A stretch of 59,184 bases of DNA from a virus (IMGVR_UViG_3300048762_000055:1-59184); one strand, 5' to 3'. Shown: positions 2,282 through 41,685, counted from the stretch's first letter. The notes: a model not told the origin generated them from the letters alone. Made by a program: numbers and translations.

Positions 2282-2646
2282 TTACCAAATCCGCCCTCGC
2301 TGGCATTCTAACGCTGGATAAGCGGACCAAGACTGCTCAATCCGAGCTCGCCGGCGAACTTGGCTCGGCTATTGCCAAGGCGGTCGAGCGTTTTGGCACC
2401 AATCGCAAGGCTTTGGGCATAATTCGGCAGTTAAACCGGATGGAACCCGAGAAACTGGCCGATTTCCTTGACCATTTCGACTATATGCTGGACGTCAGCG
2501 GGCTCGAAAAGCGAGCCGAATCGGTCCAAAGGCTGCCTATGGGGGATGCTGTGGAACCCGAGGAGGAGGTCGATATCCCCGCGGAACCCGATGCCAAGGT
2601 GTCCCGGCCTCAATTCGGGGCCAAGGCGGCGTCCGAGGTTGCCTAG
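2206..2646 (+). CDS. GapR/DUF2312-like DNA-binding protein (divergent)
   Basis: Helical pattern ...AVERFGTNRKALGIIRQLNRMEPEKLADFLDHFDYMLDVSGL resembles DUF2312; AAGGAG SD before ATG 2206. Confidence 0.5.
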   Translation: MAPRKKPGPKPEKQEAVKSSEVTGMITKSALAGILTLDKRTKTAQSELAGELGSAIAKAVERFGTNRKALGIIRQLNRMEPEKLADFLDHFDYMLDVSGLEKRAESVQRLPMGDAVEPEEEVDIPAEPDAKVSRPQFGAKAASEVA

Positions 2647-3143
2647 TGGGCCTCGCGCTCGACCTGTTCAGTGTGATGCCTGGGGCGGCCACAGAGGCCG
2701 TCCCGTTCGTTTCCGTGAGTATGGCTGGGCCACCGTGCGGGAAGGGCCGCCCACGCTTCCGCTGGGTGCCTCCTGGGGCCAGTGGAAGGCCTGGATTTGT
2801 CCATACCTATACCCCGGCGCAGACGGTATCGATCGAAACTGCCCTAAAGTGGAAGGGGAAGGCCGCCATGCGCGGTCGGCCCCTCTTGGAAGGCCCACTG
2901 GCGGTTCGGCTGTTTGCCATGATGCCGGTGCCACAAAGCTGGCCGAACAAACGGCGGGATGCGGCACTCACTGGCCTGATTTTCCATACCAGCACGCCCG
3001 ATGGTGACAATATTTTCAAGCTGGTGGCAGACGGGCTAAATGGCGCGGTTTATGTGGACGATAAGCAAATCGTGCGCCATGCGGTATTCAAGGAATACGC
3101 TGAGAACCCCGGCCTTATCGTCGAAGTTTACAAACTGGATTGA
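2646..3143 (+). CDS. rusA: RusA-family Holliday junction resolvase
   Basis: GKGRPRF, HTYTP, PDGDNIFKLVADGLNG, YVDDKQIV motifs. Confidence 0.9.
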   Translation: MGLALDLFSVMPGAATEAVPFVSVSMAGPPCGKGRPRFRWVPPGASGRPGFVHTYTPAQTVSIETALKWKGKAAMRGRPLLEGPLAVRLFAMMPVPQSWPNKRRDAALTGLIFHTSTPDGDNIFKLVADGLNGAVYVDDKQIVRHAVFKEYAENPGLIVEVYKLD

Positions 3144-3167
3144 CCTTTGCGGGTTTTCCCGTATATG
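3140..3167 (+). promoter_or_regulatory. Sigma70-like promoter with operator GCGGGTTTTCCCG between the -35 and -10 elements
   Basis: TTGACC (3140), 16 nt, TATATG (3162); operator at 3149-3161. Confidence 0.5.
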
Positions 3168-3781
3168 TCGATTATCCTAGGAAACCCACCGCAATGGCTA
3201 ATACCAAAAAATCAGAATATCAGGCTTTTCTTGCCAGTAAGGCAATCGTGGCTCAATCGCGTGGCCGGGAAACTGATGCCGCCTAGTGTCCCCTCTGCCG
3301 CCTGACAACCATTAGTGGTGTCTGCGATTATATCAGACACAACATCTAGATTCCACACCATTAGTAGATTAGCCATGCCAAAAAATCTACATATAGACGC
3401 ACCAAAACCGTCCATCATTTGTTCTTATTCTACTAAATGTAGTGGGTTTCTACCTTAGACACTAGATATAGTGGGTACGTATTATGGAACATCTTGGTAC
3501 AATCAGCCCTAGTGGGAATGGGATTAAAGACCGACCCACCATCCCTAGTGGGTATCGCGTTCGACTAGGCACATTATCTTGTGTGACTTGACAGCCTATT
3601 TTTGGCGCTATCTCCTACGCGCGGTTCCTCCCCACCGAAGATTCTCCAAGCGTCGAAGATCATCAGTTGATCTCTGGTCTTGATACCTTCTGCCACTGAA
3701 AGCCTCTGCCTCGCTGACGAGCCGAGAAGGAGGGCGGTAGTTGTTGAAGGGCGATAAAAATGGGGAAATGGGATTAAATTC

Positions 3782-16768: not shown

Positions 16769-16922
16769 GGTAGACGATGATCGAATATCATCCTGAGAAT
16801 GGTCGCGCGCCGTGGGTCATTCGCACGCGCCAAAAGCGAATCTGGCTGGCCTATCCGACTTTGATGGCCGCGCTGAAGCGGTATCCGCGCGTGTGGTTCC
16901 GCGCTTGGCGAGCGGGGCTTTA

Positions 16923-17432
16923 ATGCCAATTGAAAAAAATAACAGTTTGGCTGCTGCTCGGCTACGTGAGTTGCTGACCTATCATCCAGATTGTGGGCTT
17001 TTCACTTGGAATTTAGCAAGGGGATCGCGATGCAAGGGGTGTCTTGCTGGCAATATGAATTCTAGCGGCGCAATCCAGATTCAAATCGACAGACAGGTCT
17101 ATGTCGCGCATCGTCTCGCATGGCTTTATGTATATGGCGTTTTCCCAGATGACGAGATCGATCACGAGAATGGTGTGCCAGCCGATAATCGATGGACAAA
17201 TTTGCGGCCTGCGACCCACATGCAGAATTGTTGGAATCGAAAGAAATCCATAGCTAACACAAGTGGATTTACTGGTGCTTGCTGGATTTCAGCGAAAGAA
17301 AAATGGGTTGCTGCGATAAGGGCTGGCGGAAATAAAATACTAATTGGATATTTTGATACACCAGAAGAAGCTGGTTCGGCTTATGCTGCAAAAGCAAAAG
17401 AACTTTTTGGAGAATTTTGGAGGGCTGCCTGA
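16923..17432 (+). CDS. Free-standing HNH-AP2 homing endonuclease
   Basis: RLRELLTY.P..G.FTW, AHRLAW, IDHENG..DNRWTNLR, C-terminal AP2-like GYFDTPEEA. Confidence 0.9.
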   Translation: MPIEKNNSLAAARLRELLTYHPDCGLFTWNLARGSRCKGCLAGNMNSSGAIQIQIDRQVYVAHRLAWLYVYGVFPDDEIDHENGVPADNRWTNLRPATHMQNCWNRKKSIANTSGFTGACWISAKEKWVAAIRAGGNKILIGYFDTPEEAGSAYAAKAKELFGEFWRAA

Positions 17433-17852: not shown

Positions 17853-18155
17853 ATGTTGGAAACATTTGCCGTGAGTTTCCGCTTAGTCTTTACGGTCGAG
17901 GATCTGGTGCGCGAGATTCATTCGCTGAATCCTACCAGGGCTGGCCCGATTACCATCTTGCTGGCGTCATCCGATTTCGACAATGTGGCCGGCGAGGTGG
18001 CTAACCATTTTGGCATCCTCCCAGGCAACGGGGATAAGTTCACACTCGCCGGATTGACGATCGAGCGGAGGCAGGATGGAGAACGGGCAAGCGGTCGAAT
18101 TGGAGAAGGTGCGCGCGACCAAGGCGTACCGGCAGCGGAAAGCCCAGTTAGCTAA
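17853..18155 (+). CDS. Hypothetical protein
   Basis: ORF track; overlaps the terL start. Confidence 0.45.
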   Translation: MLETFAVSFRLVFTVEDLVREIHSLNPTRAGPITILLASSDFDNVAGEVANHFGILPGNGDKFTLAGLTIERRQDGERASGRIGEGARDQGVPAAESPVS

Positions 18156-21100
18156 TCGCGAGTGGCGTCTCGATAACCTTTATTTCATCCGCAGTGAGCA
18201 GGGCGAGCGCATTCCGTTCGTGCGCAATCCAGCGCAGCAGGCATTTTTCAATGATATGTGGCTGCGGAATATAATACCGAAAGCTCGAAAATTAGGAATG
18301 TCGACGTTCATAGAATTGCTGATGCTGGATGGCTGTATTTTCTCCAGTGGCAAGGTTTGCGGCATTGTTGATCGGTCACTGGATGATGCGGTCGACAAGC
18401 TTGGGATGATTGCGTTTGCCTATGACAATATGCCGGAGGAGATTCGCAAGGCTGTGCCGTTGGTGCGCCGCGCGGACAAATATCTGGAATGGGCGAACGG
18501 ATCGAATGTGAGCGTTGGCACGTCCTACCGCGGCGGCACGCCGGCGTTCCTGCATGTCTGTCTTACCGGCGACACCGAAATATATACGAAGAACGCGCAT
18601 CTTAAGCCGATTGAGGAGATCGAGCCCGGCGAACTTGTGCTGACGAGCAAAGGACGCTACCGGCCCGTAAAGGCAGTTATCAGAAATAGGCTTGCCGATC
18701 TTGGCGTTCGCCTTCTTGAAGTGTCTACCTTTGGCTGTCCGAACCCATTAAAAATCACTGAAAATCATATGATAATGGTGCGGAATGAGGACACCTATAA
18801 GCCAGAGTGGAGAGCGGCTGGCGAAGTAAAACGCGGCGATTACATAGCTTTTCCGTTGAATGAGCCATCCAATAATTTGCGCGATGGGACGATTCCTTTT
18901 GGTTCCATTCGCATCGTTCCAGATGATAATCTTGGTTGGCTGTGTGGATTTTATCTTGCCGAAGGCACTACACGAAAGCGCCATGGGAAGTACCTAACGG
19001 ATGTATCTTTTTCAATCGATAAAGACGAGGTGAGTGATACTCTAGCTGCCATTCATAGGCTCGGATTGAGCACCGCGCATCTAAAGCGTGGTGCCAAACA
19101 AATCAATGTTTATACGCACCCATATAGTCGGACGCGAGTGATCACCGTCAATTCCAAGGACTTTGCCGAATTTCTGTATGACAATTTTGGTGAGGGTGAT
19201 CGCAAGGCAATTCCCGACAAGATCATGAAATGGGGATCGGCCTTTATCCGTGGTCTAATCAAGGGATATTTTGACGGGGACGGTAGTTATAGCGACGATC
19301 ATGTGGTGAGTGCAGTTAGCACGCGGAAGCAGCTTATTTTCCAAATGCGTAGGCTGCTAATGTCGATGCGGTTCGGCGTTCCAGCAATTTACTTTGCGCC
19401 GGCTAGCAACCGATACGGCCGCAACTGCAAAGACGCGTGGACACTGAAACTTGGAGGGTCTGGAAACTGGAAATTCCGTAGACATTATGGTCTGCCGCTT
19501 CCTGTCCTCAATACAAAAAATGCACAGTTATCAGTTGCCAAAGGATGGCTCCCAACAGGACGAAAATTCTGGCGACGAGGCGCAGATCATTACTGGATGC
19601 GAATCACTGGCGTAAAGGAGATTGAGCCTGTCGAATTTGTCTATGATCTCGCCTTGGACGTCGAACCGCACGACTATGTGACTGTGAATGGCGTCGTTCA
19701 TAACAGCGAATACGGCAAGATCAGCGTCGACTCGCCTGATACAGCTACCGAAATCAAAACCGGTGCCATCACTGCGGTACCCATGACGGGACAGGTATTC
19801 GTCGAGAGCACTTGGCACGGTACTGGAGGCGAATTCTCCAAGATGACTATGGCTGCCAAGGCGCAGATGGATCGCCATGCACAGCTTACGCCGCTCGACT
19901 TCAAATTCCATTTCTACGGCTGGTGGCTGAAACCGGATTATCGGCTGGCTAATAACCTCGTGATTATCACGCAGGAACTCCGCGAGTATTTCAAGGATTT
20001 GGAGGCCAAGTTCGGCGTCAAGCTTGATGCCGACCAGATGGCTTGGTATCAGAATCGTTACACCGATCTCGGGCTCGACAAGACGCATGAGGAATTCCCC
20101 TCCTCATCCGAAGAGCTATTCCTGACGTCGAATGAAGGCGCGTTCTTCAAGCGGGAAATGTCGAAGGCTCGGCAGGATGGCCGCATTGGTGGTCTAGTGC
20201 CGTTTGACCCAACGCGGCGGGTCAATACGTTTTGGGATATTGGCGAGGATACAACGGCGATCTGGTGGCATCAGAGCGATGGGCTTCGGCATCGGGTAAT
20301 TGACTATTACGAGGAGGAGGGTTGGTCGCTGCAGGGTGCATGCGGGATGATCGACGATAAGCGCCGGACGCGGAAATTCGTCTATGACAAGCATTACGGC
20401 CCGCACGATATGGGCAATAAGGACTGGGGCAATTCGGCGCAGACCCGCAAACAAACGGCGAAGGGGCTCGGCGTTGAAATCACTGTGGTGCCACGGATCG
20501 ACAATAAGGACGATGCGATCGAGGCAGCGCGGCGAATGATCAACAATATGTGGTTTGATGCGGAGCATTGTTCGCTGGGTGTCGAGCGATTGGAGAACTA
20601 TCACAAGAAATGGAATAAGGCGCTTGGGGTCTATACGTCTGAGCCGGAACACGACGCCAACTCGCACTGTTTTGTAGGCGAAACTGAAATCTTGACCAGT
20701 AATGGCATTGAACGTATCAGTAACCTACCAGAAACAGGTGAGGTACTGACACAATGCGGTTTGAAGCCATATCGGAATCCTCGGATCACTCAGAAAAATG
20801 CCCAACTTGTCGAGGTCACGTTCTCCGACGGCCTTATGGTGAAATGTACGCCGGAGCATTTATTTCTGACGGCCGAAGGGTGGAAATCTGCCAGCAGCCT
20901 ATCGAGGGGTTCTTTGATCCAATCAACGTTGACCCAATTACCCAATATTTCGATGGCGGCCTATATAAAATGTGGCCCAGCGAACGCTATTTATCCCGCG
21001 CCGGACGACGATTACATATCGATGTTTGGACCGTTGCATTTGGGAAGATACCAAAAGGCTGCCACATCCATCACAAAGACGATGATCGGTTTAATAACCG

Positions 21101-21612
21101 ACTCTCAAATTTGGAATGTCTCCCAGCGTCTGAGCATCTATCTCTCACCTGGCATCAGCGAGCGGCTAAAGGATTCATTAGTAAATTTACTCCAAATGCC
21201 CGCATTCGCGCTGCCGAGTGGCATAAATCTGAAGCAGGGAGACTTTGGCATAGTCGGAATGCCAGACGCTCAAAGTCATGGGAAAAATGGAAACGAGAAG
21301 CTTATGCCTGCGATATTTGCGGGACAATCTTTAATCGCGTGGTTCGCAAAGGAGGCAACCCAGGTCGGTTTTGTTCCCACACCTGCCGGCACACTTTCTA
21401 TCGAAGGCGTAAGAAGCTTGCCGAACAAGCAGGATGTTTGGTGTCTGACGGTTCCTGAAGGTGAGCAATTTTCATTGGCAAATGGCGCGATCGTTCACAA
21501 TTGCGCCGACGCCCTCCAAACTGGCGCGTGCGGTCTGGTTCCTGACAAGGTAAAATCCGAATCGCGGTCGCGGATTGGCGAGCCGCCGAGGACTACGCAA
21601 TGGGCGTCGTAA
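18076..21612 (+). CDS. terL: Terminase large subunit with two inteins (about 518 aa spliced)
   Basis: KARKLGMST Walker A, FLHV/SE Walker B, VESTW coupling motif, FWDIG, HDANSH/CADA nuclease motifs. Confidence 0.95.
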   Translation: MENGQAVELEKVRATKAYRQRKAQLANREWRLDNLYFIRSEQGERIPFVRNPAQQAFFNDMWLRNIIPKARKLGMSTFIELLMLDGCIFSSGKVCGIVDRSLDDAVDKLGMIAFAYDNMPEEIRKAVPLVRRADKYLEWANGSNVSVGTSYRGGTPAFLHVCLTGDTEIYTKNAHLKPIEEIEPGELVLTSKGRYRPVKAVIRNRLADLGVRLLEVSTFGCPNPLKITENHMIMVRNEDTYKPEWRAAGEVKRGDYIAFPLNEPSNNLRDGTIPFGSIRIVPDDNLGWLCGFYLAEGTTRKRHGKYLTDVSFSIDKDEVSDTLAAIHRLGLSTAHLKRGAKQINVYTHPYSRTRVITVNSKDFAEFLYDNFGEGDRKAIPDKIMKWGSAFIRGLIKGYFDGDGSYSDDHVVSAVSTRKQLIFQMRRLLMSMRFGVPAIYFAPASNRYGRNCKDAWTLKLGGSGNWKFRRHYGLPLPVLNTKNAQLSVAKGWLPTGRKFWRRGADHYWMRITGVKEIEPVEFVYDLALDVEPHDYVTVNGVVHNSEYGKISVDSPDTATEIKTGAITAVPMTGQVFVESTWHGTGGEFSKMTMAAKAQMDRHAQLTPLDFKFHFYGWWLKPDYRLANNLVIITQELREYFKDLEAKFGVKLDADQMAWYQNRYTDLGLDKTHEEFPSSSEELFLTSNEGAFFKREMSKARQDGRIGGLVPFDPTRRVNTFWDIGEDTTAIWWHQSDGLRHRVIDYYEEEGWSLQGACGMIDDKRRTRKFVYDKHYGPHDMGNKDWGNSAQTRKQTAKGLGVEITVVPRIDNKDDAIEAARRMINNMWFDAEHCSLGVERLENYHKKWNKALGVYTSEPEHDANSHCFVGETEILTSNGIERISNLPETGEVLTQCGLKPYRNPRITQKNAQLVEVTFSDGLMVKCTPEHLFLTAEGWKSASSLSRGSLIQSTLTQLPNISMAAYIKCGPANAIYPAPDDDYISMFGPLHLGRYQKAATSITKTMIGLITDSQIWNVSQRLSIYLSPGISERLKDSLVNLLQMPAFALPSGINLKQGDFGIVGMPDAQSHGKNGNEKLMPAIFAGQSLIAWFAKEATQVGFVPTPAGTLSIEGVRSLPNKQDVWCLTVPEGEQFSLANGAIVHNCADALQTGACGLVPDKVKSESRSRIGEPPRTTQWAS
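18559..19704 (+). mobile_element. TerL intein 1 (382 aa) with in-frame LAGLIDADG endonuclease, in Walker B
   Basis: V|CLTGDT...ITENH...VVHN|S; GFYLAEG and GYFDGDGS. Confidence 0.95.
20668..21501 (+). mobile_element. TerL intein 2 (278 aa) in the nuclease motif, with no in-frame endonuclease
   Basis: H|CFVGET...CTPEH...DVWCLTV...IVHN|C. Confidence 0.93.
20754..21458 (+). CDS. HNH endonuclease with C-terminal Zn finger, nested in the -1 frame inside TerL intein 2
   Basis: LHIDVW...IPKGCHIHHKDDDRFNNRLSNLECL; CDIC...FCSHTC; GAGGT 9 nt before ATG. Confidence 0.85.
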   Translation: MRFEAISESSDHSEKCPTCRGHVLRRPYGEMYAGAFISDGRRVEICQQPIEGFFDPINVDPITQYFDGGLYKMWPSERYLSRAGRRLHIDVWTVAFGKIPKGCHIHHKDDDRFNNRLSNLECLPASEHLSLTWHQRAAKGFISKFTPNARIRAAEWHKSEAGRLWHSRNARRSKSWEKWKREAYACDICGTIFNRVVRKGGNPGRFCSHTCRHTFYRRRKKLAEQAGCLVSDGS

Positions 21613-21673
21613 GCTCGCGCATTGCCAATGACCTAGTTTCGCGGATATACGTGAGCATGATCGAGGTAGCCCA

Positions 21674-21922
21674 ATGGGCGTGAAAGCTTTACGCGAGGCA
21701 TTCGATGCGGCGGCCGATGGTCGCCTATCCTGTCAAAAGGCACTGCTCGATTACATCCGCCAAGATGGTGCCGAATGGCAAAAGCTGAGTTTTTCTGGTA
21801 CCGATTCCACCGGGGCGGCATTCTCGACCGAGTCCGATCTATTGCCGCCGAGAACTGATTTGACTGAGGCCGCGCGCGCGACTGCGACGGCGTTCCTCGC
21901 CAAGGAGAAACCTGCCCCATGA
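21674..21922 (+). CDS. Hypothetical protein
   Basis: GAGG SD; between terL and portal. Confidence 0.65.
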   Translation: MGVKALREAFDAAADGRLSCQKALLDYIRQDGAEWQKLSFSGTDSTGAAFSTESDLLPPRTDLTEAARATATAFLAKEKPAP

Positions 21923-22903: not shown

Positions 22904-25900
22904 GTGGCTGACGGTGATCTTCAAACCCTCGATCGACCGCCTGCAGACGATGGTATGACAATCGACGGGAATGCTGGCCTGCCGGCGGATGCGCCAGCGG
23001 CTGCGGTATTGTCGATAAGTTCGCTTTCGCCCGGCAAGCAATTCGATGTCCTGAAACAGCTTCATCTTTCCGACGCCGACCACACGAAAGAGTGGCGGGC
23101 AATGGCCGAGGAATGGTTTGCATTCCGCGCCGGCGAGCAATGGACCGCCGAGGACCGGGCCCTGCTCAATAGCCAACAGCGCCCCCATATCGTTTTTAAC
23201 CGTGTGCTGACCATCCTCAAAGCCGTGGCTGGCATGGAAATCAATGGCCGGCACGAGATTACATTCATTCCCCGCGGCACGCAGGATACGGCGGTTAACG
23301 AGATACTCTCGGCTGCGTCGAAATGGATGGCGGATGAGTGCGACGGCGAGGACGAGGAAAGTCAGGCGTTCGACGACACATGCACGGTGGGAATGGGATG
23401 GTGCCTATCCGATGATACGCTGGTGAGATTGCCTGAAACGCACTTTGCGACAACTCGGCTTTATTCAGGGAATGTCATTGAGATCAGCCTTGAAAATGGC
23501 AAGCGTCTGACCGGAACCCCCAATCACCCTGTACTCACGGATATGGGGTGGAAGCGACTGCATGAGATTTGCAACGGCGATAACCTGGTCAACGGCGATT
23601 TTCTTAAGATCATCCCCGGGCTGGCCATGCATAAGTTCGATGATGTTGAAACCCGCCTTCAGGATAGAATAAATGCGTTCGGCACAGGCCGCGAAACTTT
23701 GCGCTTTGCTACGCAGACTTCCGATTTCTATGGCGATGGAGCCGGAAGCAAAGTCCACGTTGTATATGCCGACAGCCTTTTGAGCGATAAGTTCAGGAAA
23801 TCCAAGATCTGCAAACCATTGCTGGAAAATTATTTCATTGGGTGGAATCTTCTTTCGGCGTGGCGCTCCTTTTTCTCTGGCAATGGCTTGGGTAAGCAGG
23901 CGATTCATGCCTCCAAACGTCTTGGATCGTTCCTCGGCAGACATTTTCCATGTCCGAATATGCCTAGCGACCTCATTCCCGCGCAAGTCTCTCCCGGCTT
24001 GGCGAATTCGCCTCGCTACGGTTTCCGGGCTGATTCCGATAAGGCCACCGATTTCGACAGTAGAAAGCCGTTCGTCAAAATACATGGAAATGAGTTTTTC
24101 GGTGGGCGTTGTGACGCAATGGCCTCCGGCGTGGCCGCGCAGAACATGGCCAGCGCGTTTCAACCTACTGGAAACGCTCATCAGGCTTATTCCAACTTTA
24201 TCCCCAATTTTTGCGAGTGGAAGCATCTCCTCGAAATAGAGGCGCGCAAGTTCGGCAGTAGAAACCTTGCAGCGTCGAAATTCATAACGCGGGTTACGAG
24301 CCGGGTCATCCGTCCAGTTGAGGATTTTGCTGTCCATGACGTAGGAACCTCCATTGGGTTTTTCCTTGCTGGAGATATTATTACATCGAACACGGAAAGT
24401 CGAATGTCTTACGAAGATGATCCTGCTGGCCTTTATGTGGAAGATTGCATCGACCCGCGCGAGATGTACTGGGACCGCACGGCTACGAAAAAGAACCTCT
24501 CGAATGCGCGCCGTCTTTCCCGTGTACGCCGTATGCCGCTTGGCGATGCGCTGTCGCTGTTTCCAGGCAAGACCGTGGAGCAATTGGACGCCACATGGGC
24601 CGATGCTGGCCCGATGGATTATCCAAAACGCACCATCGAGGAAAAGCGCAAGCGGGATGCCGATAATTCCTCAATGCAGGAATACGACGATAATTGCGAA
24701 GTCACGCTGGTGCAGATTCAGTGGTTCGAACGTGAGGAATACTGGATTGTCGCCAACACGCAGACCAATACCAAGACCGAATTGAGCGATGCGGAATATC
24801 GGCGATTCGGTAGCCGCATGAAGATGCTCGGTATGCCGGTACATGCGGCAAAGCTTACTCGCAAGGTTTACAAGCAGGCATGGATGGGCGGCGAATTGCT
24901 GCAGAAAGCCGGGCCCGCACCGATCAAAGGCAAGTTCTCTTGGGACTGCATTACTGGCGAATTCGATAAGTCGAAAAAGTCGTGGTTTGGCCTCGTGAAG
25001 GTCATGCGCGACCCGCAGATGTGGGCGAACAAGTGGCTTTCGCAGATCCTGCACATTCTCAACACGACGGCGAAGGGCGGCATTCTGGCCGAGACGTCAG
25101 CATTCGACGATCAGCGCGAGGCCGAGGAAGGCTATGCGCGACCCGATACGATCACCTGGCTGGCTGACGGCTCGCTGTCGGGCGATAAGCCCAAGATCAT
25201 GCCCAAGCCCGGCGCTGGCATGACAGATGGCTATCTCGGGCTCATGACGTTCGCCATCTCGTCGATCAAGGACGTGACCGGCATCAACCTCGAGCTACTC
25301 GGCCAGCAGGATCAAAACCAGCCCGGCATTATCGAGGCCATGCGCAAGCAGGCCGGTATGACGGTGCTGGCGACATTGTTCGATTCGCTCAGGCGGTTCC
25401 GCAAGAACGTGGGGCGCTCGCGGCTGTATTTCATTCAGAATTTCTTGTCGGACGGTCGGCTGATCCGTGTGGCGCAGCCTGATAACGTGCAGGCGATTGC
25501 GCTGGCCAAGGAAAGCACCACCGGCAAATACAGCGTGATTGTGGACGATACGCCGACGTCGCCAAATCAGAAGGAAGCGAATTGGGCGATCATCCAGCCG
25601 TTGCTCGGGGTGTTTAAAGAGCAGCTTATGTCCAATCCGCAGGTGTTCGGGATGCTGCTCGAATACTCGCCGTTGCCTAATCGCATCGTGGAGGCCATCA
25701 AGGGATTCATCGCCAAGCAGCAGAATGATCCGCAGGCGCAACAGGATCAACAGATTGCGAAACATTTGGCGATCACCAAGGAGGTCGCGCAAATCTCCGC
25801 ACTGCAGGCCACCGCTGAAATGAATAACAAAAAGGCCGGGGCTACCGAGGCGACGGCTATGTACGATATTGCCATGGCCCGCAAGATGCTGGCCGATAAC

Positions 25901-26266
25901 GATACGACCGGCCTAGATGCTCACCTGAAGGCCATGGAGGGCGCTGCCAAAGTCCAGACGGCTGCGGCCACTGCGGATAAGACTACTGCACAGGCTGCCC
26001 GTGAGCGTGCTGGGGTCGTGAATGACCGGCTAGAGACGCACGCCAAGGTCATAGGGGCTGTTTCTGACGCTCATCGGGCGACTACCGATGGCCAAGCGTC
26101 GCATGTGGGGGCTCTCATCGATCATATTGGCGCTATCGGTGGGCTGCATCGCGATCTTGCTGCGGCGCACAAGGATCATGTGAATGCGACGCGCACGGAG
26201 GCAACCCCCATTCCAGTTCCGCAACCGCAACAGCCTCAACCGTCGGCATCGCCTGGTGGGCCGTGA
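22904..26266 (+). CDS. P22-like portal protein with intein (about 790 aa spliced)
   Basis: F..GEQW, RPHIVFNRV, GMGW, FGLVKVMRDPQMWANK, VTGINLELLG. Confidence 0.9.
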   Translation: MADGDLQTLDRPPADDGMTIDGNAGLPADAPAAAVLSISSLSPGKQFDVLKQLHLSDADHTKEWRAMAEEWFAFRAGEQWTAEDRALLNSQQRPHIVFNRVLTILKAVAGMEINGRHEITFIPRGTQDTAVNEILSAASKWMADECDGEDEESQAFDDTCTVGMGWCLSDDTLVRLPETHFATTRLYSGNVIEISLENGKRLTGTPNHPVLTDMGWKRLHEICNGDNLVNGDFLKIIPGLAMHKFDDVETRLQDRINAFGTGRETLRFATQTSDFYGDGAGSKVHVVYADSLLSDKFRKSKICKPLLENYFIGWNLLSAWRSFFSGNGLGKQAIHASKRLGSFLGRHFPCPNMPSDLIPAQVSPGLANSPRYGFRADSDKATDFDSRKPFVKIHGNEFFGGRCDAMASGVAAQNMASAFQPTGNAHQAYSNFIPNFCEWKHLLEIEARKFGSRNLAASKFITRVTSRVIRPVEDFAVHDVGTSIGFFLAGDIITSNTESRMSYEDDPAGLYVEDCIDPREMYWDRTATKKNLSNARRLSRVRRMPLGDALSLFPGKTVEQLDATWADAGPMDYPKRTIEEKRKRDADNSSMQEYDDNCEVTLVQIQWFEREEYWIVANTQTNTKTELSDAEYRRFGSRMKMLGMPVHAAKLTRKVYKQAWMGGELLQKAGPAPIKGKFSWDCITGEFDKSKKSWFGLVKVMRDPQMWANKWLSQILHILNTTAKGGILAETSAFDDQREAEEGYARPDTITWLADGSLSGDKPKIMPKPGAGMTDGYLGLMTFAISSIKDVTGINLELLGQQDQNQPGIIEAMRKQAGMTVLATLFDSLRRFRKNVGRSRLYFIQNFLSDGRLIRVAQPDNVQAIALAKESTTGKYSVIVDDTPTSPNQKEANWAIIQPLLGVFKEQLMSNPQVFGMLLEYSPLPNRIVEAIKGFIAKQQNDPQAQQDQQIAKHLAITKEVAQISALQATAEMNNKKAGATEATAMYDIAMARKMLADNDTTGLDAHLKAMEGAAKVQTAAATADKTTAQAARERAGVVNDRLETHAKVIGAVSDAHRATTDGQASHVGALIDHIGAIGGLHRDLAAAHKDHVNATRTEATPIPVPQPQQPQPSASPGGP
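23402..24391 (+). mobile_element. Portal intein (330 aa), ends TSN|T, with no in-frame endonuclease
   Basis: W|CLSDDT...LTGTPNHPVLT..GW...VHDVGT...ITSN|T. Confidence 0.88.
23465..24337 (-). CDS. Antisense gene inside the portal intein: two HTH repeats plus Vsr/DUF559-like endonuclease
   Basis: LARLYFEEMLPLAKIGDKVGIS and LISMYFDERLSTVEIGGLIGIS HTHs; NE..F...QKAVGIYNVDFA...IAIEI; GGAGG 10 nt before ATG. Confidence 0.8.
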   Translation of the reverse strand: MDSKILNWTDDPARNPRYEFRRCKVSTAELARLYFEEMLPLAKIGDKVGISLMSVSSRLKRAGHVLRGHAGGHCVTTPTEKLISMYFDERLSTVEIGGLIGISPETVARRIRQAGRDLRGNEVARHIRTWKMSAEERSKTFGGMNRLLTQAIAREKGAPRRKKIPPNEIIFQQWFADLGFPELIAQKAVGIYNVDFASGSIAIEIGSLRSKAQSFAACAERIYSILKAGFNIIELMHGQPGDDLKKIAVDQVIAVANLMQSLPPHIREYRVIGGSGQTLAIFKADLNDIP

Positions 26267-41175: not shown

Positions 41176-41685
41176 ATGGCTGAGAGCAAAAAACATTACC
41201 CTTCAATTGATCGCATCCGAGAACTGTTCACATACGATGAAAACAGCGGACTTTTCTTTTGGCACATCAACAAAGGAGAAATGAGAATTGGCGATATTGC
41301 TGGATCAGACAATGGTCGCGGATATATTCGTCTTACAATAGATGGAGATCGTCGATTAGCTCATCTGGTTGTTTGGTTCTTAAAGATGGGTGTCTGGCCA
41401 ACTCACAAAATTGATCATGAGGATGGTGATGGCTTTAACAACCGATGGAGCAATTTGAGGCGAGCTACACAGGCAGAAAACCTAGCAAACAAACGCATTT
41501 CATCGAGAAATAAAAGTGGATTTAAGGGTGTTATCTTTGATGAGGATAGGCAACTATTTCGTGCTGAAATTACAAAGGGATCATACAGAGAATTCCTTGG
41601 CCGATTTAGAACAGCGGTAGAAGCTCACGCAGCCTATGCGGCTGCGGCGCACCGAATACACGGCGAATTTGCGAGGATACAATGA
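41176..41685 (+). CDS. Free-standing HNH-AP2 homing endonuclease
   Basis: RIRELFTYD..SGLFFW, IDHEDGDGFNNRWSNLR, SGFKGV, LGRFRTAVEAH; AT-rich. Confidence 0.9.
   Translation: MAESKKHYPSIDRIRELFTYDENSGLFFWHINKGEMRIGDIAGSDNGRGYIRLTIDGDRRLAHLVVWFLKMGVWPTHKIDHEDGDGFNNRWSNLRRATQAENLANKRISSRNKSGFKGVIFDEDRQLFRAEITKGSYREFLGRFRTAVEAHAAYAAAAHRIHGEFARIQ

Follow-up and report, generated by a model that had tools for sequence, protein, structure and literature searches.

The second of two inteins in the large terminase gene (terL) of the virus record IMGVR_UViG_3300048762_000055:1-59184 encloses, in the overlapping -1 frame of the same strand, a complete open reading frame (ORF) for an HNH endonuclease of the HNH_3 family. 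This IMG/VR record comprises 59,184 bases at an estimated completeness of 91%, and the whole of it was analyzed here (the window). We consider it probable that the nested ORF encodes a functional, separately translated homing endonuclease that is overprinted on a splicing-competent mini-intein. The parts of this arrangement are the following, with residues counted from the start of intein 2 or of the HNH protein:

18076-21612, plus strand: terL ORF, a precursor of 1178 amino acids (aa) that would measure 518 aa once two inteins are removed
20668-21501, plus strand: TerL intein 2, 278 aa, class 1 (Cys1 ... His-Asn / Cys+1), with the layout C...TPEH...VHN
20668-20934, plus strand: N-terminal splicing domain, intein 2 residues 1-89, modeled as beta strands with a predicted local distance difference test score (pLDDT) of 75-95
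20935-21387, plus strand: TerL-frame "linker", intein 2 residues 90-240, stop-free and not conserved as protein, pLDDT 26-44
21388-21501, plus strand: C-terminal splicing domain, intein 2 residues 241-278, pLDDT 86-94
21502-21504, plus strand: +1 Cys codon of the C-terminal extein, where intein-less relatives have Gly or Pro
20754-21458, plus strand: HNH endonuclease ORF in the -1 frame (offset +2 from the TerL frame), 234 aa plus stop, wholly inside intein 2
21009-21137, plus strand: HNH_3 catalytic core, HNH residues 86-128, as delimited by Pfam HNH_3
21309-21386, plus strand: C-terminal Cys4 cluster (C186, C189, C207, C211), invariant in 10 relatives, a putative zinc finger and DNA-binding module

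In the terL frame, intein 2 matches Pfam Intein_splicing (6.9e-10) and retains the residues expected of a class-1 intein. Its first residue is Cys (20668-20670), which is invariant both in 10 relatives and in 70 of 70 distinct copies; these copies were aligned by their terL frame and derive from the 82 of 86 loci in which a complete intein was recognized by pattern, the misses being one partial and three variant-terminus loci. Block B reads TPEH with T61 and H64 invariant in the 10 relatives, and the C-terminus reads VHN followed by Cys, again with invariant H277 and N278 and with C, S or T as the +1 residue of relatives. When the intein was modeled with AlphaFold2 on a 10-sequence alignment, Foldseek returned 37 matches in the Protein Data Bank (PDB) at E<=0.001, led by mini-inteins, the best being the gp41-1 intein with a template modeling score (TM) of 0.85 on the target. 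The in-frame middle matched none of the Pfam and PHROG domains looked for, so that the terL-frame product resembles in this model a mini-intein that is competent to splice and has ~150 disordered residues as its tether. An earlier reading made from the sequence alone (the sequence-only reading) had described a 278-aa intein running from C through TPEH to VHN before Cys, with a featureless in-frame middle, and both descriptions are borne out, the latter by the missing domain matches as well as by the low pLDDT at residues 90-240.

The nested ORF matches Pfam HNH_3 (PF13392) over residues 86-128 at 6.4e-15, with 55 bits against a cut-off of 24.8, and PHROG 15471 "HNH endonuclease" over residues 71-230 at 7.9e-27, which confirms the HNH that had been noticed in the -1 frame at 20754-21458, within the intein and with both frames open. 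HNH_3 is the sole nuclease family matched: there was no match to Endonuclease_7 at E<=0.1, and other, sub-threshold matches are of zinc-finger type. Residues H88, H107, K108, N115, N119 and H128 are invariant in 10 relatives, and we take H107, N115, N119 and H128 to be the active-site His/Asn/His. The protein is composed of an N-terminal CxxC extension, the HNH_3 core and the C-terminal Cys4 module. For the latter, the sequence-only reading had proposed a CxxC...FCSxxC zinc finger, of which the four invariant cysteines stand; the finger itself is suggested by the Cys motif alone, because the Pfam zf-FCS match to the HNH C-terminus falls below threshold (E 0.036). Of the 70 copies of this subfamily, 65 have a further Cys beside the H-I-H-H motif, against 0 of 12 more distant relatives without the CxxC extension, which hints that the CxxC and this active-site-adjacent Cys may share a zinc site, though the pattern comes from a single clade and is thus weak evidence. 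A profile search with the HNH alignment against PDB sequences gave Plasmodium EXP2 (E 0.001) as its lone match, which we regard as spurious.

The nesting is common among related sequences. A profile scan of IMG/VR matched 583 stretches, 539 of them confirmed by tblastn, and we examined the best 80 of the 539, which are 48-59% identical to the window over the whole HNH ORF. In all of these 80 loci a long ORF with the same relative offset surrounds the HNH match, and intein termini are recognizable at both ends in all but five; an earlier scan of IMG/VR with a single sequence had found 11 loci with identical nesting in 11/11. Genome contigs yielded 15 loci, comprising 9 nested at the same offset (including two contigs of archaeal metagenome-assembled genomes, MAGs), 5 free-standing and 1 decayed. 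A tblastn search of GenBank phages with the HNH returned 22 records, four of which have the match under an annotated terL with the HNH frame open for 170-305 codons at offset +2 (Clostridium phage phiCDHM19, Tetrasphaera phage TJE1, Rhodobacteraceae phage LS06-2018-MD07 and Acinetobacter phage Highwayman). The alternative-frame ORFs of these four all match Pfam HNH_3 (45.8-53.2 bits), and their terL-frame intein middles (between C and [SH]N, then [CS]) are featureless. None of the four annotated records lists an HNH (0/4), in line with the earlier expectation that standard annotation would miss the nuclease, and the unannotated GenBank record MT838676 has the same offset +2 nesting. Hosts of the family include Clostridium, Acinetobacter, Rhodobacteraceae, Vibrio and uncultured phages.

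Vibrio phage 1.238.A (L107; NC_055735.1, 1-3389) presents the same parts in a broken form. Its terL is fractured, with the N-extein and the N-terminal intein part ending at 2537; the HNH ORF follows in the -1 frame at 2399-3130, and the terL frame resumes with a "hedgehog/hint domain protein" at 3072-3389, whose last residues are ...VVHN before C. By this layout, the locus is an HNH-type fractured gene with a split intein that is related to the contiguous form of the window.

The distribution of the intein fits that of a homing element moving between divergent terminases at a shared motif. Both TerL inteins and the nested HNH are missing in 5/5 of the closest TerL relatives, which are otherwise colinear with the window; their spliced TerL identity to the window is 93% (L108), 93% (L109), 80% (L110), 57% (L111) and, over the queried extein stretch, ~38% (L112). 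Three of three DNA sequencing runs from peat and permafrost (X3, X4 and X7) contain the intein-less joint, in which the contig joins position 20667 to 21522 with 20 other letters between them, and this empty allele thus differs from the window in the 20 nucleotides (nt) right after the insertion site. It coexists with the filled one at depths of 18.6, 6.6 and 70.8 against 14.5, 10.6 and 46.5 for the intein-bearing allele in the same runs, where contig depths are rough figures and the three runs may belong to related campaigns. Comparison of the window with L108 shows 6 amino-acid differences within 10 residues on each side of the insertion site of intein 2, against 0.062 per residue elsewhere; this single comparison is suggestive of co-conversion of flanking host sequence. 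The window extein shares only 26-38% identity with those around related inteins, and average identity is 61% for the splicing domains and 51% for the HNH. In 675 of 700 random pairs the HNH identity exceeds the extein identity (Spearman 0.07), and judged from these pairs the phylogeny of intein and HNH is decoupled from that of the extein.

In the mechanism that we propose, intein 2 would be a composite mobile element in which a mini-intein has been overprinted in the -1 frame by a homing endonuclease gene of the free-standing HNH_3 type. Ribosomes on terL would read through the whole intein, the two HINT halves (residues 1-89 and 241-278) would fold together with the ~150-residue middle as a disordered, stop-free tether, and protein splicing would restore TerL. 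The 234-aa HNH would be made separately from the ATG at 20754 behind AGGTGAGGT and would cut or nick intein-less terL alleles in co-infecting phages of related kind, close to the conserved H/(G/C/S)xDA site, and repair from the intein-bearing copy would then spread intein and nuclease together.

HNH proteins encoded next to terminase genes are known to assist packaging as cofactors, and the nested HNH might instead serve the phage, as a terminase-associated packaging cutter or as a nuclease against competitors that is merely housed in the intein. Its closest free-standing relatives do adjoin terminase genes, just upstream of terS in Acinetobacter phage BP10 and just downstream of terL in Lactobacillus phage CL2 and Pseudomonas phage PAE1. 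This placement is in keeping with a nuclease that was free-standing and already directed at terL when it entered an intein, but it also fits a packaging role and to that extent counts against homing. A phage-serving role nonetheless seems unlikely to us. Phages with 80-93% identical TerL lack the nested HNH, and this terminase therefore does not need it; both alleles, filled and empty, occur together within single samples; intein and HNH have a phylogeny decoupled from that of the extein; and the window already has a separate free-standing HNH_3 gene at 16812-17432.

Several features of the family point to initiation of the HNH within the intein:

20736-20744, plus strand: Shine-Dalgarno-like AGGTGAGGT, 9 nt before the ATG at 20754, including GAGGT at 20740-20744

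Exactly 86 nt separate the start of the intein from the ATG in 60/70 distinct copies. Intein codon 29, whose last base supplies the A of this ATG, has A there in 67/70 across 11 different amino acids (background 0.16), and the next terL-frame codon is Cys (TGY) in 59/70. The Glu codon within the Shine-Dalgarno motif is GAG in 54 copies and GAA in 10, compared with a background GAG share of 0.55; the motif of the family reads GGnGAGGT, and some Shine-Dalgarno-like motif precedes the first ATG in 56/70. The HNH could alternatively arise by programmed -1 frameshifting, an option named in the sequence-only reading and suggested by its position in the -1 frame of a translated gene, which would produce a fusion of N-extein, N-terminal intein part and HNH. 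However, the HNH frame has a TGA stop at 20739-20741, four codons before the ATG, that forces any shift past the conserved start codon, and canonical slippery heptamers (X_XXY_YYZ, in phase) occur in only 8/70 copies and at no single conserved place. Frameshifting would moreover leave the conserved ATG and Shine-Dalgarno motif unexplained, and we regard it as very unlikely. With the conserved ATG, the A of codon 29, the GAG bias, the Shine-Dalgarno motif and the scarcity of slippery sites, internal initiation is therefore much the better model, and initiation at ATG 20754 is favored by these sequence patterns. The earlier proposal of internal initiation behind a GAGGT located 9 nt before this ATG thus gains support, and its frameshifting variant loses it.

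Upstream of the start codon, further constraint is visible in intein codons 9-17, which code for TerL only. Their synonymous sites are frozen (TTG 57/64, CGT 55/57, GGA 64/68, ATA 57/65), and together they read TTGACN-17-GATAAT in most relatives. The corresponding elements of the window, both of them hypothetical, are:

20692-20720, plus strand: promoter-like element TTGACC, 17 nt, TATCAG, within the intein coding sequence
20717-20749, plus strand: RNA hairpin burying the Shine-Dalgarno motif, seen on folding window RNA 20716-20760

TTGACN is present in 57/70 copies, and both hexamers match in at least 5/6 positions in 41/70. The window's own -10 hexamer (TATCAG) is poor, and the idea of an internal promoter is drawn from the family consensus only, because a promoter scan of window positions 20300-21800 gave 0 sites. 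Just downstream of the promoter-like element, an ACCTNCC stretch can pair with the Shine-Dalgarno-like GGNGAGGT. The resulting hairpin of the window has a folding energy of -12.5 kcal/mol (z -2.39), with 4 of 200 shuffled sequences as stable; RNAalifold on 53 relatives gave a weak hairpin of -3.65 kcal/mol with a covariation term of -0.08 and one pair changed on both sides, which is no covariation support. Codons 9-30 may thus hold an internal promoter and a hairpin that occludes the ribosome-binding site.

Some homing endonuclease genes of phage T4 are expressed from their own short transcript only. By analogy, codons 9-30 of the intein could form an old, stable and self-contained expression cassette (TTGACN-17-GATAAT, a hairpin burying the Shine-Dalgarno motif, and ATG), which we consider possible but rather doubtful. 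If it were true, the HNH would be made only from its own short transcript, while the hairpin would bury the Shine-Dalgarno motif on read-through terL mRNA. The next ~55 codons would serve both proteins, the CxxC and the subfamily-specific Cys may form a zinc site, and the family would be the long-sought living intermediate on the way from a mini-intein and a free-standing nuclease gene to canonical and split inteins.

Codon-position diversity among the 70 copies shows which frame is under selection in which part of the intein. Given for terL-frame positions 1/2/3, nucleotide diversity is 0.26/0.21/0.49 at intein residues 1-28, 0.21/0.29/0.31 at residues 46-85, 0.21-0.35/0.55-0.64/0.28-0.39 at residues 86-240 and 0.25-0.32/0.20-0.34/0.58-0.66 at residues 241-278, and the 10-sequence alignment repeats the pattern. 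The splicing parts peak at TerL position 3 and therefore evolve as ordinary terL-frame coding sequence. In the linker, the most variable site is TerL position 2, which is HNH position 3, and the HNH is therefore the protein selected there. Amino-acid identity in the linker is accordingly 0.49-0.66 in the HNH frame versus 0.15-0.42 in the TerL frame, where amino-acid diversity reaches 0.62-0.74; to judge from these values, the intein frame of the linker is merely kept free of stops. A third regime governs the stretch in between:

20754-20922, plus strand: dual-coded stretch, intein residues ~30-85 over the N-terminal extension of the HNH (CxxC ... EMYAGAF), with low diversity at all three codon positions

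Conserved terL residues have a synonymous codon diversity of 0.35 here (n=26) and of 0.56 where the splicing parts are single-coded (n=34; Mann-Whitney p=0.0009). Both invariant Cys codons of the HNH CxxC begin with a frozen synonymous T, that of an AAT codon (56/56) and that of a CTT codon (66/66), and codons of the TPEH block are frozen as well (ACG 70/70, CCG 66/66). By this measure, ~55 codons are truly dual-coded. The view of the intein frame as a stop-free linker, taken in the sequence-only reading, therefore applies to the middle, which is unconserved as protein and kept open, and has to be given up for residues ~30-85, which are dual-coded with the CxxC extension of the HNH.

Several points weigh against a functional homing endonuclease of this kind. 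We infer the translation of the HNH, its cleavage target and the splicing activity of the intein, and the nesting in 80/80 viral loci does not represent 80 independent events because related sequences share ancestry. The ATG is found at another position in 10/70 copies, and by a simple criterion a Shine-Dalgarno-like motif is not evident in 14/70. Evidence from RNA libraries consists solely of one 197-nt contig in run X19 (20637-20833, depth 5.5) that runs from the extein into the intein and past the Shine-Dalgarno motif and the ATG; it could stem from DNA and is no proof of transcription. The AlphaFold2 model of the HNH, built on the 10-sequence alignment, reaches a pLDDT of only 56, with the highest values (70-81) in the C-terminal Cys4 part, and Foldseek found no match to it at E<=0.001, I-HmuI ranking second at E 1.2 and an FCS zinc finger reaching E 2.2; because the model is poor and these matches are weak, we make no structural claim for the HNH. 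Finally, two relatives are decayed. In a contig of an Acidobacteriaceae MAG (L091, 3193-4214) both frames are damaged, the terL frame ending inside the intein and the HNH frame running on into the C-terminal splicing part. In a nested copy on a contig of a Gammaproteobacteria MAG (L101, 3501-4397) one stop lies just before the H-V-H-H of the HNH, and the host frame stays open for 832 codons despite it.

Such decay could be taken to mean that the HNH frame of the window is itself the recently dead relic of an invading nuclease gene, open only from lack of time. This is hardly credible given that relatives only 48-59% identical in the HNH protein keep the frame open in 80/80 cases, that change in the HNH frame is in excess at third positions and that the catalytic-type residues are invariant. 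Coincidental openness of the two frames was addressed by redrawing the synonymous codons of the HNH ORF with the codon usage of the extein at the same locus. The share of trials without a stop in the TerL frame was 1.8% for the window and 0-2.4% for nine relatives; across the HNH ORF, 3.2-7.3 TerL-frame stops were expected and 0 were seen in 10/10 loci, and the third frame holds 12-34 stops, as expected. That assembly or sequencing indels pushed an in-frame HNH out of the intein frame has a practically negligible chance, since contigs of three independent peat and permafrost DNA runs span 842-951 nt of intein 2 with 0 gaps and no inserted or deleted letters listed, since two indels that cancel each other would leave between them 150 codons in which 3-7 stops would be expected and since 80/80 independent assemblies have the same offset. 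Indels that restore the HNH to the intein frame and homologs with a broken -1 frame had been named at the outset as findings that would speak against overprinting; the gap-free contigs and the 80/80 viral relatives with both frames intact leave it standing on both counts.

Inteins above mini-intein size without a detectable in-frame nuclease are usually filed as degenerate. A paper from 1997 reportedly describes an HNH-type homing nuclease as a domain of the intein polypeptide, whereas the HNH of the window would be a separate polypeptide in another frame. The free-standing HNH_3 proteins near terminase genes (PAE1 Orf3, CL2_3 and BP10 UYL86055.1) are 33-39% identical to the window HNH over its core and C-terminal modules and belong to the same PHROG family type; unlike it, their genes are independent, lack the N-terminal CxxC extension and overlap no other frame.

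In full-text literature searches, endonucleases placed out of frame or antisense in inteins or intein-like insertions were found only in the 2025 work of one group. The literature check that the sequence-only reading had called for thus went against the novelty of the general arrangement, which is already part of a 2025 preprint by Gosselin, Arsenault and Gogarten (bioRxiv 10.1101/2025.01.02.630785). According to its main text, inteins of actinobacteriophages carry antisense LAGLIDADG, antisense VSR-like and, "in frame 3", "endonuclease VII-like" nucleases; these architectures are called rare, and a free-standing nuclease gene invading an intein is proposed as their origin. The window resembles this class in having the splicing domain in the host frame, the nuclease between the splicing blocks at the same +2 offset ("frame 3") and on the same strand, an in-frame middle without recognizable structure and TerL among the hosts. 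It differs, in a comparison by family description, in that the nucleases described there are "endonuclease VII-like" (IPR004211) and that of the window is an HNH_3 with Cys-rich modules, and in that their survey is confined to actinobacteriophages and the present family is wider, with 539 candidate IMG/VR stretches. The actinobacteriophages that the preprint names do not occur among the matches listed (60 of 449 tblastn matches). The string "ribosom" is absent from its text, and its relevant passages deal with neither start signals, dual coding nor codon-position selection, while its supplements could list related cases. The other nuclease family, the wider hosts, the conserved internal start, the dual-coded segment and the fractured relative distinguish the present family from the class as described in that text, and it is much commoner than the word "rare" suggests.

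Two other systems are informative by comparison. In the ShiLan-domain insertion of a phage DNA methylase (Arsenault et al., Genes 2025, PMC11855218), an out-of-frame HNH is likewise hidden in an insertion that is stop-free in the host frame and has a homing-like distribution, and translation of the hidden frame is presented there as an open question. As described, ShiLan lacks a splicing domain and is thought to stay in the protein, whereas the carrier in the window is a bona fide intein; it also has no detectable ribosome-binding site and a GTG start is proposed, whereas ATG and a Shine-Dalgarno-like motif are conserved here. In the fractured genes of Dassa et al. (NAR 2009, PMC2677866), a free-standing homing endonuclease gene separates the two parts of a split intein. 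They share with the window a nuclease gene of free-standing type that is placed at the nuclease-insertion point of the intein and overlaps with the intein part downstream of it. Exactly this fractured form is seen in Vibrio phage 1.238.A, but the host frame of the window is unbroken and its intein is contiguous and predicted to splice in cis. In the passages concerned, the nucleases of these fractured genes are GIY-YIG or Vsr-like, and an HNH is only predicted as possible.

The present family shows that a large and widespread set of apparently nuclease-less inteins carries an intact nuclease ORF that annotation in one frame misses. With its contiguous overprinted, fractured and decayed forms, the family also offers abundant natural material for an origin of inteins in which the splicing domain comes first and a nuclease gene invades later. 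It is further a clear case of overprinting with contrasting selection, on amino-acid sequence in one frame and on openness in the other, with a short stretch serving both. Intein engineers may, in addition, profit from the tolerance of the HINT fold for a long disordered tether and from an internal start placed within a splicing domain.

The host gene and its surroundings can be described more briefly. The terL precursor matches phrog_2 "terminase large subunit" at 4.2e-07, and the intein-less relative L108 does so at 5e-16. Pfam returned no terminase domain for the window precursor or for L108, and a PDB sequence search with an intein-less relative was also empty; the identity of TerL is therefore drawn from the PHROG matches and from gene order, with the portal gene next. 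The gene's other intein is of the familiar kind:

18559-19704, plus strand: TerL intein 1, 382 aa, a canonical in-frame LAGLIDADG intein with Pfam matches to Hint, Intein_splicing and LAGLIDADG_3 (1.7e-08)

This intein, too, is missing from 5/5 of the closest TerL relatives, and one terL gene hence holds two inteins with different nuclease arrangements. The portal ORF (22904-26266) carries a 330-aa intein at 23402-24391 on the plus strand, running from C to SN and followed by T, over which an antisense ORF extends on the minus strand (23465-24583; up to 372 aa; first ATG at 24337, inside the intein) with two Sigma70_r4-type helix-turn-helix modules. The C-terminal third of this antisense ORF matched no nuclease family in Pfam (E up to 10), NCBIfam or PHROGs. 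The sequence-only reading had counted the portal intein as a second overprinted homing-endonuclease intein; the antisense ORF with its two helix-turn-helix modules upholds part of that claim, and a nuclease domain was not identified. The portal intein may be an antisense homing-nuclease intein like those of the antisense class outlined in the preprint of Gosselin et al.

The free-standing HNH_3 gene upstream of terL (16812-17432) encodes 206 aa with a Pfam match of 1.8e-12; L110 has a copy at 76% identity, no copy was found in the L108 and L109 loci, and the gene may itself be a mobile nuclease gene. Positions 41353-41490 give another weak HNH-like match (E 4.7e-5).

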